Shown piece by piece: positions 26,043 through 37,377 of a DNA stretch of 64,000 nucleotides. The DNA is from a virus. Lineage: Duplodnaviria > Heunggongvirae > Uroviricota > Caudoviricetes > Schitoviridae. A program made the position numbers and the translations under genes. Numbering within the stretch: the first letter of the stretch is position 1; each line of letters starts with the position of its first letter. The DNA is taken from the IMG/VR virus record IMGVR_UViG_2974642717_000001, positions 14,146 to 78,145 of that record, one strand, 5' to 3'. Below the pieces are notes generated by a model. The model was not told the origin of the DNA and made no database searches. It saw only the letters and a list, made by a program, of their open reading frames with translations.

Positions 26043-27025
26043 TAGATTTTTAACTCTCCAGAGTTGATATATTTATCCTTCTGGGTACATGCATTGAAAC
26101 CGGCACAGTACATACAAGCACGCGGTGGTGGCTTGATCTCTTTGACGATACCAACTGAACCATCTTGTACAAATCTAAGATTCGCTTCCTGAGGTGTATC
26201 AAACACCTTAGTAGCTCTAACCCCCTTGGGGTTCTTATAGTATTTCCACTTGGTTCCGGTACGCCAAAGTTCCTTGTCGGTACATTCGGGAAGAGCGTTC
26301 TCTGGGAGCTGAGAGTACATGTCTATCTGGCTCAACTTACGTAGAATCCAGTTTTGTGTCCAATCAACATCCTTTAACGGGAACTCCTTCTCGACCATGT
26401 CAGCAGGAGGATAATTGTTTTGTTTGGAGCTATAGCTGTTCCAATCCTTAAAGAAGAACTGAATGGCCATAACATCCTTGGTTATGATGTCAGGCATACC
26501 CCACTTATAGATACTACCCTGCATAGAGTAGTCCTCATCCTTGTTACCGGATGTGTAGGTGTAAGTACCTGTCTGTTTGAAATCTTCTAGGCGACCATCG
26601 CCACAGAAGTCGAATTGACCGGTCACAATCCAGTCGCCCAAAGGCTTATAGAAGCGTTGCTCCATATAGACCGGGATCTGGCCGGGTTCTACCTTATCAG
26701 GGTTCAACACCACCTTGTCGATAATGTTCTGAGGGTATCCCAGAGCTTCCATCGAACCTTTGTAGTTGTTAACCCAAGCACTTTCAATAGCATCGTGTAG
26801 AGCAGTACCGCCTCGTGATGCGCTCATATGAGCAATATCTACAGGCTTAGCCATGGCGGTACCATCAGCTCTGCTAGTTAAGATGATCTGTCTGGTGCTT
26901 TTGAGTAGGGTCGTAGCTGAGATGTACTTTTTCCCATCATCGGGAGGCTGCTGATATGTATCGTTAGCCAAATACACTGCTACTGACAGAGGTATGTTTC
27001 TGTCGTTGGTGTAGGTTTTTGTCAT
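26042..27025 (-). CDS. PD-(D/E)XK exonuclease, Cas4/RecB-like with C-terminal Cys cluster
   Basis: 'QFDFCGDGRLEDFKQT' (D...E.K motif) and C-terminal 'CMYCAGFNACTQ' Cys cluster typical of Fe-S Cas4/AddB-type nucleases. Confidence 0.55.
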   Translation of the reverse strand: MTKTYTNDRNIPLSVAVYLANDTYQQPPDDGKKYISATTLLKSTRQIILTSRADGTAMAKPVDIAHMSASRGGTALHDAIESAWVNNYKGSMEALGYPQNIIDKVVLNPDKVEPGQIPVYMEQRFYKPLGDWIVTGQFDFCGDGRLEDFKQTGTYTYTSGNKDEDYSMQGSIYKWGMPDIITKDVMAIQFFFKDWNSYSSKQNNYPPADMVEKEFPLKDVDWTQNWILRKLSQIDMYSQLPENALPECTDKELWRTGTKWKYYKNPKGVRATKVFDTPQEANLRFVQDGSVGIVKEIKPPPRACMYCAGFNACTQKDKYINSGELKI

Positions 27026-31991: not shown

Positions 31992-32410
31992 AAGTCTTCC
32001 TCCTTAACGTACATACCATCAATCATTTTCCCACGTCGGTCTTTGATCTCTTGGTATGAAGTGTTTAAACAGTGGGCATAACCCCAACCATTACGTTCAG
32101 CCATGTTAATAGCTACAACACCCATGTCACCTAGACCATCTTTGAGAGCTGCTTGCGCGTGCTCAGCCTTCACAGGCTTGATTCGCCCAGAGTCATACAG
32201 ATCGCTAACCATATCTTGAACTTTAGCTGCGATACTCACAGCCTCTTTCTCAGGCATCTGTGCTGCAACCACCTCAATAAACTCTTCTAGGAGCTTCTTG
32301 GTTTGATTCCAGTCAGTTGTACCGTCGATAAGGTTACGGTCTTCATGCCATCGGGTAATATTTTCAATTACCTGCGGTGCAATATTGTTGTTGGGTTTAG
32401 TATTAATCAT
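31988..32410 (-). CDS. hypothetical protein (possible MazG-like NTP pyrophosphohydrolase; weak)
   Basis: Likely start is the ATG at 32410 (MINTKPNNN...), not the track start at 32527. 'LLEEFIEVVAAQ' is a helical EExxE-like segment; assignment is tentative. Confidence 0.3.
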   Translation of the reverse strand: MINTKPNNNIAPQVIENITRWHEDRNLIDGTTDWNQTKKLLEEFIEVVAAQMPEKEAVSIAAKVQDMVSDLYDSGRIKPVKAEHAQAALKDGLGDMGVVAINMAERNGWGYAHCLNTSYQEIKDRRGKMIDGMYVKEEDL

Positions 32411-32546
32411 CGTCCACCGCCTTCTTACGCTTACGCGTGTTCTTACGGTTACGTTTCTCAATCTTAGCCTGTTCTCGCTCATTGCGACGAGCTTGGTAAT
32501 CACTGTGACCCCAGTCCTCTTCGCCATAGCGTCGTTTATTTCCCAT
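32403..32546 (-). CDS. small highly basic protein (47 aa from ATG at 32546)
   Basis: Strong SD TAAGGAG 7 nt upstream of the ATG at 32546. The track ORF start at 32642 is probably an upstream artefact. Confidence 0.4.
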   Translation of the reverse strand: MGNKRRYGEEDWGHSDYQARRNEREQAKIEKRNRKNTRKRKKAVDDD

Positions 32547-32763
32547 ATCGGAACTCCTTAATAGCTTCCAAATAGTGAATTGCTTTGTCGATGTCCTCCG
32601 CACCGTTCTTACTCTTGTGACGGAGTAGGTACTTGAGGGCATTACCTTCGTAGAAATCTAACTTATTAGCGTTAATGATTTCCCAAGGTTGTAGGGCTTC
32701 ACCTTTATAGTGATCCCCACCATGTTGAACATCTAGGACGGACATGTGAGCTCCTTCCAACAA
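32536..32763 (-). CDS. DUF3310-like phage protein
   Basis: 'GGDHY...QPWEII...GNALKYLLRHKSKNGAEDIDKAIHYLE' matches the conserved DUF3310 pattern common in phage nucleotide-metabolism modules. Confidence 0.45.
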   Translation of the reverse strand: MLEGAHMSVLDVQHGGDHYKGEALQPWEIINANKLDFYEGNALKYLLRHKSKNGAEDIDKAIHYLEAIKEFRYGK

Positions 32764-33160
32764 ATCGGGTACAGGGGTTCAATCAGAGCACCAATCTCTT
32801 TTGCAAGATCTTGGATCTCCATTTGAGCGTGACTATCTGTACGCTGATTATAGAAGCGAGCAAATGCCGCTAGAGAGCCAGTCCAATACCAGTTAACTTC
32901 ACAGCCTTGTGGTAGTAGGAAACGAGCTTGTTCTTCTGCTACACCACTATCAAGCATATCTTCATAGTCTTGAATAGCTGAGTTCACCGAATCTCGGTAC
33001 GCCTTCTGTAGCTTGGCGTTGTCTGGGTGTAAACCACCACTACCTTGCTTCTTATTGTCAGCCTGAATACGGAACTCAGGTACAAAGAAGGTTGGTGTGC
33101 CACTAATGTATCGACGAGATTCCTCGTTTTCCGAGAAACCTACTTTGTGTTTAAACTTAA
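32733..33160 (-). CDS. thyX: FAD-dependent thymidylate synthase, exon 2 (approximate 5-prime boundary)
   Basis: Hand translation upstream of the track ORF gives 'FKHKVGFSENEESRRYISGTPTFFVP', the ThyX 'FRHRIASY...SxRY...YIP' region with K-H-K in place of R-H-R. C-terminal 'ARFLLPQG...GSL...RTDSHAQMEIQ' is the ThyX tail. Confidence 0.55.
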
Positions 33161-33926
33161 CCTTCTCCTGAGGGCGTTAACCTTAGGACGTTCTCTTACG
33201 AACTGCTACGTATTTCTACGCAGAAGAGACTATATCATCACCGTCATCTTCTGTTACGGTGTCCTGCGCTTCCATCGCACTTGCGATGTACTCCCCTATG
33301 GGATAGTCGTTGCACCTTCCACTTTCGTGGCTTGGCTCAGGATTGCCCACAGCACCATCTGTTTGGGGTTCCCCTGAATTCACAGGAATTAACTCTATGA
33401 ATTTCTCCATAGAACTGCTTAAACTGTATGTACAAGATTCCCTATCAAACTCTATTAATCCAGCTTGTATGAGTGAGTAGGACACTTCTTCTAATTGGCC
33501 ATGACATTTACGGTGATCCGCTTTAGTCATATGGATTAGGTTAGACTTCTCGTTGTGTAGTTTATTACCATCGATATGATGTACCACATCGTCTGCTGAT
33601 ATATCGGGGAAAGGTATTCTATGTGCTGGGACGTATTTAGTCCCATCATACACTAGATGATATCCTTGCTTAGTAATATACCCGTCCCCGTAGTTACGGG
33701 CATCGTGGCGAGCTTTCTTACCGCACTCTACACAGGTGTTATGTTCCCTAGGGGCTTGTATCCAACGTTGCTCACTGCACGTAGGGCATTCCACTAAGTA
33801 TTCATATATGATCCGGCCTTTAGCATTATGGCCTTTAATACGAGAATCTAGGTAGTTCTTAATCTTGGTCATTGTGGTTCCTTATATTTAAATATACATG
33901 GAGTATACTATAAGGATACAGTATTA
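33161..33926 (-). mobile_element. putative group I intron (or other intervening element) interrupting thyX, carrying an HNH endonuclease ORF
   Basis: ThyX exon 1 ends at stop 33924-33926 right after '...APVPIRTQ'. ThyX homology resumes ~760 nt downstream in the same orientation. The HNH ORF lies wholly inside the gap with its own start. Confidence 0.5.
33216..33872 (-). CDS. HNH homing endonuclease (intron-encoded)
   Basis: 218 aa. N-terminal Cys4 (CPTC...CVEC) and HNH core 'HHIDGNKLHNEKSNLIHMTKADHRKCHG'. Confidence 0.8.
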   Translation of the reverse strand: MTKIKNYLDSRIKGHNAKGRIIYEYLVECPTCSEQRWIQAPREHNTCVECGKKARHDARNYGDGYITKQGYHLVYDGTKYVPAHRIPFPDISADDVVHHIDGNKLHNEKSNLIHMTKADHRKCHGQLEEVSYSLIQAGLIEFDRESCTYSLSSSMEKFIELIPVNSGEPQTDGAVGNPEPSHESGRCNDYPIGEYIASAMEAQDTVTEDDGDDIVSSA

Positions 33927-34142
33927 ACAACATTGTGTGCGTATTGGTACAGGTGCACGCACTCGTACTGTAACGCTGGTATGTTGGAAAGGAGTAATAT
34001 GCCGGTGTTTAGCCAGATATTTAATAAGTCGTTCATTTTGTTCCTCCGTACGACTACTGTCGCCTTCGTTAGCAAAGGAAACCCTTGCTGCTGCTACTAC
34101 ACTAGCGTCTGAGCCCATGTAGTCAATCAGTTCTGCTTGCAT
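33927..34142 (-). CDS. thyX: FAD-dependent thymidylate synthase, exon 1
   Basis: 'VVAAARVSF...RLIKYLAKHRHITPFQHTSVTVRVRAPVPIRTQ' closely matches the ThyX N-terminal region. Confidence 0.6.
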
Positions 34143-34384
34143 TAACCCTCCAAGATTCTTTCAAGACGTAATTCAACAGGCAGTTTAACCACCTGAGATG
34201 TTTTTCGATTACATGCAAACTTACCGCCTTGATCACGGCTCATTGAGAACCCTAGAGGTGTAAACTTCATGATGTAACCTTCTACCAGCTCGTTATATTT
34301 AGGTTGGATGTAGACGACTAAGTCGCCTACCTTCACTTCCTGACCACAAGCATCTTTACGTACTTCAGTCTTTAGAGCTGTCAT
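34142..34384 (-). CDS. hypothetical protein, 80 aa
   Basis: ORF; overlapping stop/start with neighbours. Confidence 0.45.
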   Translation of the reverse strand: MTALKTEVRKDACGQEVKVGDLVVYIQPKYNELVEGYIMKFTPLGFSMSRDQGGKFACNRKTSQVVKLPVELRLERILEG

Positions 34385-34559
34385 ACACTTCCCACCCTAA
34401 TTTATTTTCATAGTATGAATTTAGGAATACGAGTAACGATGCAGGAAGTAGCACCCATAGACCAATCTGAGGTATCATTACCAACACTGCCATATAAATG
34501 GCTATGTCTATGAAGTTCCAGATAGGCTTGAACATAAATTGAACAATTTTGTTAACCAT
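34365..34559 (-). CDS. small membrane protein, 64 aa, two hydrophobic helices
   Basis: 'IAIYMAVLVMIPQIGLWVLLPASLLVFL' hydrophobic core. Confidence 0.4.
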   Translation of the reverse strand: MVNKIVQFMFKPIWNFIDIAIYMAVLVMIPQIGLWVLLPASLLVFLNSYYENKLGWEVYDSSKD

Positions 34560-34568
34560 TTCAATTCC

Positions 34569-34850
34569 TTAGTTGTCTTCTAGGATATCCGCCATCTTTC
34601 GATAGTCAGATATCAGTTTCATTTCTTTGTACAGCGCGTACATGTTTGGAGCCAGCTCTTTGAATTGCTCCTCACCTAGTTCCTCCGCAAGACTAGATAA
34701 ACTGGTAAAGCTAGTGTTCATACTTTTAGCCCGCTCGTGTTTTTGAATACGTCCAGCAGCTTGAGCTATAACAGAGTAAATATCTTGGTCATGGACACCT
34801 CCCCATATTGTGGGAGGTGGTGCACCAAATACATTATCTCCCGACGACAT
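34569..34850 (-). CDS. hypothetical protein, 93 aa
   Basis: ORF immediately downstream of the polymerase gene (overlaps it by 17 nt). Confidence 0.45.
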   Translation of the reverse strand: MSSGDNVFGAPPPTIWGGVHDQDIYSVIAQAAGRIQKHERAKSMNTSFTSLSSLAEELGEEQFKELAPNMYALYKEMKLISDYRKMADILEDN

Positions 34851-37377
34851 TCAGGATCTCCTTTCTACTTAGATTATTCTTAATGTTGATATCATCTTTC
34901 CATGAAGGGTAGAAGATATCTAACTCCGCGCCTATCTTAACGGTTGGGTGCCAGTCAAGCTCCGGCAAGCCGTGGCTCTCCATACACTCTACGAGGTTAT
35001 TGTTTAACCACTCAACTGCACCAACATCGTCTGGTAGCATCAAGTAACACGCATCATGAATCAGAGCACTGATATGAATACGGCATCGATACTCCGAGGC
35101 ATTGATTCTCTCTTGCAACATAGCAGCTGCTTTTGAGTTAACAAGACCATAAGATTGGCCTAATGCATTACCTGCTGTACGTCCCTCAGCTGCAGCCTCT
35201 TTAGGCATACGTGGTGCGCCCCATACAACATTACGAATCAGGGGAGTTCTAACTCTTAATCCGTAAGCTACGGTAACGTAACCATCTTTGTTTGCCTGCT
35301 GTAGTCTATCTTGCACCCACTTATCAGATACCTGATACATCTCGTGGTAGGAGTCCTCAATCTGCTTGGCTTCATCTCTCGAGAAACCACAGTTATTCAT
35401 GAGGGTGGTGAATGTGCCTTGATAGGTTAGAGCAAAGGTTGGAGCCTTAGACTTCTGACGAACATCCCCGAATACCTTTTCATTCTTCAGTTGGTTCACA
35501 TGGTCAGGAGTCTCAGTCATCCAATCAGGCATCTGATCTTTGAAGTAATAGTAAGCACGTAGACAGTGTCCACAGTAGCCATCTTCATAAACTTTAATCT
35601 TATTGGGATCTCTGGTCGTTAGAGCAGATACATAATCTTCGAGGGAGTTGTAATCGGCACCAGCAAATAGCTGTCCTTTAGGAGCACGGAAGCAATTCTT
35701 AATAAGCTTTGCGTAGGTACTGCCGCTAGGAATTTGCTGTAGGTTAGGTTTACTAGATGATAGTCGTCCTGAAACGGTACCGCCTAAGTTGAACCCACCG
35801 TACAATCGGTGTGTGCCATCACTAACAGGGACAGCATTGAGGAAGTTGGGCATAAACGAGGAGATTATCTTATCTACTTTAGACAAGTGAATCAGACAAC
35901 GAATAATCATTATCTTATCCTTGTCCTTTGTATGCTTCTTTAGCTTCTTGAGGGTCTTAGTTCCCGTAGCAGGCTGCTTGGTATCAGTAAGATCTAATAC
36001 CGGAAACTCCCAATGGGTGTATAGCAGTTCCTGTAATTGTTTCGGGGAACCTGGATTTAACTCAAGGTCTAAGAAGTCATCCTCCGTCTTACGCTTCACC
36101 TTACGGGTGGTGTTGTAGAGGTGTGTCTCTTGCTGTCTTCTAATCTTCAGGTAGCCTACTTCTTCGAGCTTACGTTGCAAGAACCCATAATAGGTATCAT
36201 GTAGTCGGGTCAGTCGGTTGTTAGCCTTGTGAACTGACGGCATGTGAAGTGGCATTCCTACCAACTCCATTTGCAGTATCTGTTTAGCTGCTGGCTTGAA
36301 CAGACTATCGTAAATCTCGCGCTGATCATCGGCATCAACAGTACCGTTGTGCTTGTTAAACACATACCAAGTAGATAGGCAATCCACTAGGTTGTACTTC
36401 ATTAGTTTGCCCTTTTTTATCAGGCGAATATCGTTGATGTTATCTTCAGCATAGTTACCTGCGAACTCATGGGCTTGTTCCTTCAAGCTCAGCTTATTAC
36501 CGGCACATGAATTGGTAGCGAGGTAAGTCAGAAGCTTAGTGTCATCGAAGTTCTTCGTGACAGCTTCTACCCCTTCTATCATTCCATCGTAATCTAGGTA
36601 ATCCTTCATCCACAGAGTGTAGACAAGGATTTTCAGATCGTATCCAGCGTTATGCCAGATGAGTTTACCTTTGTACTCAGTAAAGAACTGCTTGAGTAGG
36701 GCCCTCACTTCCGCGTTGTCCTCCCGTGCCCCCGGGGTATCAACAGGTTTGATTTCCATCAACTCCTGCATCTTGGACAGAGGTGCATTGTCTACGTAGT
36801 CACACATGACTACGCCACCTTCGTGCTGATTCCAAGCGAAACCAACAGTACCGATGCCTGCATCTCCAAAGAAGAGTGAGAATGTTTCTAAGTCACAACT
36901 CAATTCTGGATATTTATGTAAGCCTTTCAAGAACTTAGCAATATCAGCAACATCTTCGTGGTACTCAGAGTGCTTGATAATATCCGAACCGAGTTCGGTG
37001 AATGTACCATTCTTGTGATCATTCAAAGTCTGCAAGGACAAGGCGAGCTTATCTTTGTTCTTTGGATCATAGAATAGTGACTGGTAATTGATCCCATAGA
37101 TCACCTTAATATGTCCAAAACCCTTCCAAGCACAGTCAACCACAGACCCTAAACTAGGTTCTGCCTTAGTGAGCTTAGTCAGCTTCTTGAAATATTCGCC
37201 ATCAGCACAGTAGACTATCTTGATGGATAGGCTATCTATCGCCTTCAATAGCGTAGGGATATAGGCATTAGCAGTCTTAGCAGAAGGCTTCTTCTTACCG
37301 CCATAGTCGAGACTCAACGCTACAGTCTTGTCCCGATCTAAAGCAGGGAAGTAGTTATCTTCTATGTTGCGCTGCAC
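34834..37377 (-). CDS. DNA polymerase, family A (N4 gp39-like) with 3-prime-5-prime exonuclease domain
   Basis: Exo I 'CDLETFSLF'; motif A 'GADYNSLE'; motif B 'RQKSKAPTFALTYQG'; motif C 'LIHDACYLM'. Confidence 0.85.
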   Translation of the reverse strand: MQRNIEDNYFPALDRDKTVALSLDYGGKKKPSAKTANAYIPTLLKAIDSLSIKIVYCADGEYFKKLTKLTKAEPSLGSVVDCAWKGFGHIKVIYGINYQSLFYDPKNKDKLALSLQTLNDHKNGTFTELGSDIIKHSEYHEDVADIAKFLKGLHKYPELSCDLETFSLFFGDAGIGTVGFAWNQHEGGVVMCDYVDNAPLSKMQELMEIKPVDTPGAREDNAEVRALLKQFFTEYKGKLIWHNAGYDLKILVYTLWMKDYLDYDGMIEGVEAVTKNFDDTKLLTYLATNSCAGNKLSLKEQAHEFAGNYAEDNINDIRLIKKGKLMKYNLVDCLSTWYVFNKHNGTVDADDQREIYDSLFKPAAKQILQMELVGMPLHMPSVHKANNRLTRLHDTYYGFLQRKLEEVGYLKIRRQQETHLYNTTRKVKRKTEDDFLDLELNPGSPKQLQELLYTHWEFPVLDLTDTKQPATGTKTLKKLKKHTKDKDKIMIIRCLIHLSKVDKIISSFMPNFLNAVPVSDGTHRLYGGFNLGGTVSGRLSSSKPNLQQIPSGSTYAKLIKNCFRAPKGQLFAGADYNSLEDYVSALTTRDPNKIKVYEDGYCGHCLRAYYYFKDQMPDWMTETPDHVNQLKNEKVFGDVRQKSKAPTFALTYQGTFTTLMNNCGFSRDEAKQIEDSYHEMYQVSDKWVQDRLQQANKDGYVTVAYGLRVRTPLIRNVVWGAPRMPKEAAAEGRTAGNALGQSYGLVNSKAAAMLQERINASEYRCRIHISALIHDACYLMLPDDVGAVEWLNNNLVECMESHGLPELDWHPTVKIGAELDIFYPSWKDDINIKNNLSRKEILNVVGR

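Follow-up and report, generated by a model that had tools for sequence, protein, structure and literature searches.

Introduction

In the group I intron of the phage T4 td gene, the loop that holds the open reading frame (ORF) of the endonuclease I-TevI is that of P6. This ORF lies mostly in a non-essential loop, with its 3' end alone entering the structured ribozyme core (PMC2988022), and ORFs that reach into the core of an intron are a recognised category (PMC3984707; PMC2988022). In the DNA polymerase gene of Bacillus phage SPO1, a group I intron encodes I-HmuI (PDB 1U3E), an endonuclease of the HNH (HNH_3) type. The subject of this study is the thyX gene of Vibrio phage vB_VspP_pVa5 (pVa5), an N4-like podovirus of the Schitoviridae, and the element that interrupts it. 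The stretch analysed, hereafter the window, comprises 64,000 nucleotides (nt), with window coordinates equal to record coordinates minus 14145 (NC_049379.1 numbering); by megablast, positions 32000-35000 match pVa5 (KX889068.2 / NC_049379.1) at 100%. Katharios et al. (2017, PLoS One, PMC5746245) reported a group I intron here (Rfam RF00028), with an HNH gene inside a 'td' thymidylate synthase gene.

Herein, we conclude that pVa5 thyX very probably carries a mobile group I intron of subgroup IA (T4/Twort-like), inserted directly before the stretch that encodes the active-site motif of ThyX. The locus shares with T4 td and I-TevI a subgroup-IA phage intron in a thymidylate synthase gene, at a critical part of the coding sequence and with an in-frame stop just inside; it also shares an endonuclease gene whose ribosome-binding site (RBS) is predicted to be masked by a hairpin and whose 3' end runs into the ribozyme core (PMC2988022). 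The two differ in the interrupted gene (ThyA in T4, ThyX in pVa5) and in the endonuclease (GIY-YIG in T4, HNH in pVa5). Moreover, unlike the I-TevI ORF, the pVa5 ORF probably starts in the P1 loop and reads from P2 to P9, over about 70 codons. The intron of SPO1 resembles that of pVa5 in harbouring an HNH endonuclease, but the target gene and the N-terminal region of the endonuclease are different and the similarity is weak.

Results

Coding sequence and splice junction of thyX

A preliminary description of the window had proposed that the ORF at 33924..34142 encodes a ThyX N-terminus that stops abruptly, that ThyX homology resumes about 760 nt downstream in the same orientation, and that a complete HNH gene lies in between, as in a group I intron with a homing endonuclease. 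Our analysis bears out this organisation. The product of the ORF (MQAELIDYMG...APVPIRTQCC) ends at a TAA two codons into the intervening sequence, and ThyX-like sequence restarts at 33155 (FKHKVGFSENEESRRY...) after a gap of 774 nt. An in-frame stop 1-2 codons past the 5' splice site was found in all five related introns (see below). Joining 34142..33930 to 33155..32733 yields a ThyX of 211 amino acids, which matches Pfam Thy1 (PF02511) with 161.2 bits (cut-off, 24.8) over profile positions 1-190 of 191, and Thermotoga maritima ThyX (PDB 1KQ4) with E=5e-31. By tblastn, the spliced protein is covered to 100%, in two pieces.

The ThyX of Vibrio phage 1.026.O is uninterrupted, is likewise 211 amino acids long and is 88% identical to the spliced pVa5 protein; across the junction it reads ...PIRTQCFKHKIGF..., which includes RTQCFKHK. 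Because this intronless homologue is colinear and gapless there, the junction was placed at C71/F72 (...RTQC/FKHK...; a slash marks a junction throughout), for which the predicted ligated sequence is TGT/TTT, i.e. ...CAATGT/TTTAAACAC... The DNA alone allows this junction to slide by one T, and the boundaries 33929..33156 were chosen because a U as last nucleotide of the exon and a G as last nucleotide of the intron fit a group I intron. Exon 2 has neither a start codon nor an RBS at 33155, its first in-frame start being a GTG at 32987, 57 codons downstream. The spliced product is most likely an active synthase of thymidine monophosphate (dTMP), as judged from its conserved residues. The features of the locus are listed in Table 1.

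Table 1. Features of the interrupted thyX locus (window coordinates)
Feature	Position	Strand	Remarks and basis
thyX exon 1	33930..34142	-	codons 1-71, ends CAA TGT (Q70 C71); ORF list, sequence, colinear with 1.026.O ThyX
Group I intron, 774 nt	33156..33929	-	Rfam RF00028; boundaries from alignment with intronless allele
thyX exon 2	32733..33155	-	codons 72-211 and stop; begins TTT AAA CAC AAA (F K H K)
Codons K73-H74-K75	33144..33152	-	counterpart of R-H-R; aligned to T. maritima ThyX R78-H79-R80
TAA stop in exon 1 frame	33924..33926	-	two codons inside the intron; read from sequence
Codons skipped by deposited coding sequence (57; FKHK...RDSV)	32985..33155	-	NC_049379.1 47130-47300; includes the ThyX motif
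Predicted HNH homing-endonuclease ORF, 218 amino acids	33216..33872	-	ATG at 33872; TAG 33218..33216
P1 5' strand (exon UGU and intron nt 1-14)	33916..33932	-	inferred model; pairing table for five introns
Internal guide sequence (P1 3' strand)	33416..33429	-	model; G33418 opposite U33930; just 5' of P2
Leader hairpin	33879..33916	-	3' arm over Shine-Dalgarno AAGGA of HNH ORF; minimum-free-energy folds of five leaders
Ribozyme core	33166..33413	-	five-sequence alignment and pair counts
P2	33413-33394	-	five-intron alignment
P3	33387-33381 with 33268-33262	-	five-intron alignment
P4	33377-33372 with 33342-33337	-	five-intron alignment
P5/P5a		-	five-intron alignment
P6/P6a	33336-33314	-	five-intron alignment
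P7	33308-33303 with 33233-33228	-	five-intron alignment
P7.1	33302-33293	-	five-intron alignment; invariant
P7.2	33288-33273	-	five-intron alignment; two pairs with compensatory changes
P8	33261-33239	-	five-intron alignment
P9	33223-33206	-	five-intron alignment
P9.1	33203-33190	-	five-intron alignment
P9.2	33188-33166	-	five-intron alignment

The intervening sequence as a group I intron

A search of the intervening sequence with the Rfam model Intron_gpI (RF00028) gave a match at 33446..33206 of 99.2 bits (gathering score, 50; E=5.6e-26) over the full model, positions 1-253; this was the sole Rfam match in the window. The range 33161..33926, which had been put forward for such a search, lies within a few nt of the true one and is closer to it than the public annotation. 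The intron begins with UGUUAA and ends with GUUAAG, omega G being at 33156. U33930 before the intron and G33156 at its end can be read directly from the sequence and are the same in all five introns.

The secondary structure was assessed by covariation in the 3' 295 nt of five introns, those of pVa5, Vibrio phage 1.097.O and the metagenome contigs L123, L124 and L126, with helices P2-P9.2 written out manually. Standard pairs made up 97.2% of the cells, and 29 of the 72 pairs had changed on both sides. None of 500 shuffles matched the observed values, and pairing fell to 35-44% when the 3' partners were slid by 1-3 columns. The changes in P2, P9 and P9.2 were almost entirely compensatory; P4, P6, P7, P7.1 and P9.1 were invariant across the five introns and thus uninformative on covariation. 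The P3/P7 pseudoknot and the core helices P3-P9 are present, and P7 is separated from the 3' strand of P3 by two additional hairpins, P7.1 and P7.2. These we take to place the intron in subgroup IA (IA2-like) of the Michel-Westhof classes, as for the introns of T4 and staphylococcal phages. Between pVa5 and 1.097.O, identity is 90.6% in the core, 82-85% in the exons and 61% in the rest of the HNH ORF. Collectively, the profile match, the covariation, the colinear junction and the occupation of the same site in four other genomes or contigs lead to the conclusion that the 774-nt intervening sequence is a group I intron, for which guanosine-dependent self-splicing is predicted.

Proposed P1, guide sequence and leader hairpin

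In the pairing model for the five introns, P1 has three invariant pairs, U(-1)-G, G(-2)-C and U(-3)-A, and a distal helix of 5-7 bp with compensatory differences (ACUGUAU/AUACAGU in pVa5, AAGUUG/CAACUU in L123 and L124, GGUGU/ACACC in L126, a slash here separating the two strands). This points to a long-range P1, in which the guide sequence, about 500 nt downstream of the splice site, would present G33418 as the partner of the splice-site U. The guide lies within the HNH coding sequence (T-Y-S-L-S), and because P1 is long-range, the first ~147 codons of the endonuclease gene would be in its loop, if the model is right. A candidate P10 pairs GUUUAA, on the 5' side of the guide G, with UUAAAC at the start of exon 2, 6 bp in pVa5. 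Two other arrangements were rejected: a local P1 hairpin by the 5' splice site reached only 4 bp with any of several GUAU candidates, which did not agree among the five introns, and a register with alignment position G36 opposite U-1 failed in L126, so that G33 was preferred. In the minimum-free-energy folds of the leaders, which differ in sequence, a hairpin buries the Shine-Dalgarno sequence, or instead the AUG in L126, in 5/5 introns.

The HNH ORF and its overlap with the ribozyme core

The intron ORF, which the preliminary description had taken for a complete HNH gene with its own start, has a Shine-Dalgarno sequence (AAGGA) 6 nt before its ATG, and its TAG straddles the end of the 5' strand of P9 and the loop. 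It matches PHROG 19902 ('HNH endonuclease') with E=4e-91. Homologues of 190-247 amino acids fall into about 115 clusters, most with precomputed PF13392, and H98, H99, N107, N111 and H124 are invariant or nearly so among them; the N-terminus has four invariant Cys (C29, C32, C47 and C50) and a weak match to zinc-ribbon proteins. A phmmer search of the ORF product against PDB gave no match, and a profile of 44 homologues found only I-HmuI (1U3E) there, weakly (E=0.015), over 54 profile positions across the HNH motif. We predict that the product is an I-HmuI-like HNH endonuclease, nicking being assumed. A protein search of viral contigs with the HNH sequence for related loci found no relative. 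The tblastn matches to HNH residues ~155-218 in many viral loci were rejected as protein homology, being really the translated conserved ribozyme core.

The ORF continues through the guide sequence and P2 to P9, so that its last ~70 codons are the ribozyme core. The near-invariant peptides VNSG, NPEPS and GRCNDYP are the translations of P3-J3/4-P4, J5/4-P4'-P6 and P6'-J6/7-P7, respectively. Since the core differences between pVa5 and 1.097.O keep base pairs and not amino acids, RNA constraints dominate in the core. For comparison, the stretch from P4 to P7 was read in the HNH frame in 80 related cores from other viral contigs that share a 17-mer in J6/7-P7. The stretch was out of frame in 62, in frame with stops in 17 and open in one; that is, in 79/80 of these cores the frame of the pVa5 ORF is closed or shifted between P4 and P7. 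In the HNH family of the pVa5 intron, in contrast, more than 100 protein clusters have an open frame from the guide through P7.1 (VNSG...NPEPS...GRCNDYP..EY), and the insertions and deletions in P5/P6 of the pVa5-type intron family are multiples of three. Beyond P7.1, the tails of the HNH homologues (P0271-P0383) differ in frame and length (189-247 amino acids). The overlap of ORF and core in the pVa5 intron is unusually long. That the core of this intron family doubles as selected protein-coding sequence is a possibility which we raise tentatively and consider rather unlikely.

Distribution and mobility

The order thyX 5' fragment, HNH ORF and thyX 3' fragment also occurs in 1.097.O, L123, L124 and L126, with group I matches of 83-92 bits at these four loci. 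All five introns share one insertion site, between the Cys codon that ends RTQC (RVQC in L126) and the first codon of FKHK, and the five intron-bearing genes are 53-90% identical to one another. The ThyX proteins of L123, L124 and L126 are only 53-59% identical to that of pVa5, with different neighbouring genes, and close relatives (1.025.O, 1.026.O and others) are without the intron. The presence of the same intron and endonuclease at one site in thyX genes that are only 53-59% identical therefore indicates homing.

The J6/7-P7 17-mer was found exactly in more than 119 viral contigs. In blastn comparisons, 40-79% of the core aligned at 69-78% identity with introns of Staphylococcus Kayvirus, of T7-like DNA polymerase genes, of T4-type nrdB and of the Bacillus phage beta22 thymidylate synthase gene; the last two reach up to ~84-88% over shorter stretches. 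These introns differ from that of pVa5 in their host genes and in the position of their ORFs. Pseudoalteromonas phage pYD6-A, which is N4-like, has an uninterrupted K-H-K thyX and two intron-core matches (JF974296.1, ~26517-26646), at least one of them inside the DNA polymerase I gene; because of this location, related introns appear to occupy other replication genes in N4-like phages.

Further insertions were observed in relatives of this gene. Exon 1 of the L123, L124 and L126 thyX genes encodes an insertion of 29-38 amino acids after the YLA(K/R) helix relative to pVa5, seen by eye also in L130 (Pectobacterium phage CB1), and many ThyX representatives of 50%-identity clusters match in two stretches, like the insertion-bearing L123, L124 and L126. 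The relatives P0143, P0153, P0267 and P0142 are ThyX proteins of 474-640 amino acids with inteins (Intein_splicing and HNH; LAGLIDADG in P0142). These inteins lie at Thy1 profile positions ~75-78, about 7 residues downstream of the intron site (for example, ...VHN/CENEVSRRY). Two kinds of mobile element thus target the motif-coding stretch of thyX. In Pseudomonas phage KIL4 (L131; NC_042054.1, 68748-71444), two 'thymidylate synthase' fragments alternate with two HNH genes, after a gene for a 305-amino-acid 'putative thymidylate synthase' whose similarity to pVa5 ThyX is undetectable; ThyX C-terminal homology is found in only one fragment. This suggests a further thyX that mobile elements have disrupted at different sites.

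K-H-K in place of R-H-R

In solved ThyX structures, the R-H-R triad binds the phosphates and ribityl of flavin adenine dinucleotide (FAD), and the first Arg also touches the isoalloxazine and deoxyuridine monophosphate (dUMP) (PMC6514825). The same Arg is directed at N1/C2=O of the reduced flavin, and in T. maritima ThyX the anionic reduced form owes its stability to a basic residue opposite N1 (PMC11940539). The triad, which the preliminary description called phosphate-binding, is more than a binder of the dUMP phosphate (PMC6514825, PMC11940539). Its reading of K-H-K stands, as the codons align with R78-H79-R80 and the intronless 1.026.O gene also encodes RTQCFKHK, so that it does not stem from a misplaced splice site. 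An intron boundary that brings back R-H-R, which had been allowed for, was ruled out: K-H-K is unchanged by moving the splice site, and uninterrupted homologues read K-H-K.

T. maritima ThyX (TM0449, PDB 1O26) and pVa5 ThyX share the fold family and the catalytic residues; they differ in the triad, in the spacing from motif to Ser (7 and 8, respectively) and in G89, which is Arg in pVa5. The pVa5 motif, KHKX8S (K73 H74 K75 ... S84), hence departs from the signature RHRX7S, with one extra residue before the Ser. We examined the 119 nearest clusters at 90% identity, the deposited pVa5 protein being excluded. The first position was K in 119/119 and the third K in 108 and A in 11; the motif was K-H-K in 107, K-H-A in 11 and K-T-K in one. 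Of the 150 nearest representatives at 50% identity, which share 40-60% identity with the query, 142 could be aligned at this motif; K-H-Q was read in 43, K-H-K in 35, K-H-T in 11, R-H-T in 7 and R-H-R in only 3. In the lineage as a whole, Q, K, T, M and other residues occupy the third position. Among named phages, K-H-K is found in Rheinheimera phage Barba and in the N4-like Pectobacterium phage CB1, K-H-Q in phiEco32 and the canonical R-H-R in the N4-like roseophage V13. H53, Q75, E86, S88, R90, Y91, R147 and R174 (T. maritima numbering) are kept in pVa5 ThyX and in 119/119 near clusters; of the 150 distant representatives, at least 128 retain them, the exceptions being mostly alignment gaps.

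KHKX8S throughout the lineage counts against the strictness of the RHRX7S signature and not against membership in ThyX. What the preliminary description called unusual does depart from the signature, but it is the norm for a large phage ThyX lineage. K-H-K would accordingly be the lineage-typical form of the contact to flavin and FAD phosphates and not an oddity of the pVa5 gene. Lys for Arg at the first position would be a conservative change, in which the Lys could occupy the place of the Arg, and this lineage evidently tolerates variation at the third position. S-R-R-Y in place of S-G-R-Y was present in 248 sequences and absent from 6 when the third Arg was lost, against 3 and 5 when it was kept, the sequences being phylogenetically non-independent. 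In pVa5, the extra Arg is R85 (window 33116-33114), and it may compensate for the lost third Arg.

These data were also weighed for the possibility that the K-H-K (K/R-H-x) lineage is functionally divergent, in its handling of flavin or reductant, its substrate or its product, and is not an ordinary dTMP synthase. The change from RHRX7S to KHKX8S, with a positive charge at the third position that is dispensable across the lineage, and the association of the extra Arg with loss of the third, which suggests a rewired site, could be read in this way. We nevertheless consider it improbable, as all known contacts to dUMP and the flavin ring except R78 and R80 are conserved, the first position stays basic, with Lys presumably doing the flavin-N1 job, the S-R-R-Y counts come from related sequences, and the neighbouring genes, those for ribonucleotide reductase, a MazG-like protein and DNA polymerase, fit a role in deoxynucleotide supply. 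The altered substrate handling suggested earlier, though possible, finds no indication in these data.

Published annotation and gene neighbourhood

RefSeq NC_049379.1 annotates a two-piece coding sequence (gp040/gp041), and the deposited protein (YP_009876159; P0008) has 155 amino acids and reads RTQCC/NSAIQ. In both the paper and RefSeq, exon 2 begins with the GTG ORF at window 32984, which is 171 nt too far downstream. The 2017 paper describes 57 amino acids as 'completely missing' from pVa5 and an intron with 279 nt outside the HNH gene (PMC5746245); in fact, the 57 codons directly follow the true 3' splice site, and only 117 of the 774 nt of the intron are outside the ORF. The 155-amino-acid protein is an annotation artefact and not a feature of the sequence. 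The corrected coding sequence, in NC_049379.1 numbering, is complement(join(46878..47300,48075..48287)). The same paper equates the gene with T4 td (ThyA) (PMC5746245); judged by the profile match of its product, the pVa5 gene is a thyX, of a fold unrelated to ThyA, and not a homologue of T4 td.

Every gene in the thyX region is on the minus strand, with a DNA polymerase gene upstream of thyX and DUF3310, MazG-like and ribonucleotide reductase genes downstream. At window 32733-32763, the last 13-31 nt of thyX are shared with the 5' end of the DUF3310 gene (37 bits with Pfam; named 'nucleotide kinase' in RefSeq), the length of the overlap depending on the start codon. ARAGORN with default settings found no tRNA in the whole window (1-64000). 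The 'tRNA-Stop interrupted by ~2.5 kb' of the 2017 paper, obtained from ARAGORN with 3-kb introns allowed (PMC5746245), looks doubtful.

Discussion

We propose the following course of events at pVa5 thyX. Transcription would proceed from the minus strand, and ribosomes translating exon 1 would halt at the TAA two codons into the intron. The RNA would fold such that exon UGU and intron nt 1-14 pair with the guide ~500 nt downstream (P1), followed by the P2-P9.2 core; free guanosine would then attack after U33930, exon 1 would attack after G33156, and the ligated mRNA would be translated into the complete 211-amino-acid ThyX. The RBS of the endonuclease would be masked by the leader hairpin. By analogy with T4 I-TevI, a single RNA molecule would serve either for translating the endonuclease or for folding the ribozyme but not for both, since the core makes up the last ~70 codons of the endonuclease gene. 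In mixed infection, the endonuclease would nick or cut intronless thyX at the conserved ...CARTGT/TTTAARCAYAAR..., and repair would copy the intron in (homing).

Several points weigh against this interpretation. Splicing is predicted from sequence, the 2017 paper being purely computational as well; the exon contributes just 3-4 bp to P1, and L124 and L126 have an imperfect P10. Moreover, the pVa5 HNH ORF matches Pfam HNH_3 with 20.8 bits, under the 24.8 cut-off. As for the motif, a literature search for ThyX plus KHK found nothing, and we know of no ThyX of the K-H-x type that has been assayed.

The intron could instead be a decayed, non-splicing relic, with pVa5 thyX a pseudogene or the source of a truncated 72-amino-acid product and the phage relying on host dTMP. 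The nature of the evidence for splicing, which comes from sequences, and the deposited annotation, which gives a 155-amino-acid protein lacking the catalytic motif, would be in keeping with such decay. However, that protein is an artefact of annotation, the core helices are all intact and covary, the core is better conserved than the exons, and both exons, the 57 codons lacking a start of their own included, are open and match an uninterrupted homologue at 88% identity; we therefore regard a relic as very improbable. Least tenable is a split gene, in which two ThyX polypeptides assemble without RNA splicing around a free-standing HNH gene: gene callers do give two Thy1 fragments flanking the HNH gene in several genomes, but exon 2 has no start or RBS at 33155, a start at GTG 32987 would delete FKHK...SRRY, and the gap is filled exactly by a complete group I ribozyme.

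The pVa5 intron, already published, is thus ordinary and well preserved and belongs to a known kind of mobile group I intron. What is new is modest: the corrected splice site and protein, the occupancy of one site in diverse phage thyX genes, the ORF in the putative P1 loop with its possibly selected read-through of the core, and the extent of R-H-R variation in phage ThyX. The immediate gain is a corrected gene model, in which the deposited ThyX is seen to lack the catalytic motif only through the wrong start of exon 2; fragmented thyX annotation is also found in 1.097.O and the three metagenome contigs with the same intron. Should the tail encoded by the core be functional in the endonuclease, or act as a built-in switch between translation and folding, the intron would represent an unusually extensive case of dual RNA and protein coding. 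With the intron a single codon ahead of the ThyX motif, and with inteins about seven residues after it in relatives, the locus cleanly illustrates how mobile elements aim at DNA that encodes an active site. Finally, the 'strictly conserved' R-H-R is K/R-H-x in a large phage lineage, which matters for motif-based screens and for ThyX enzymology.

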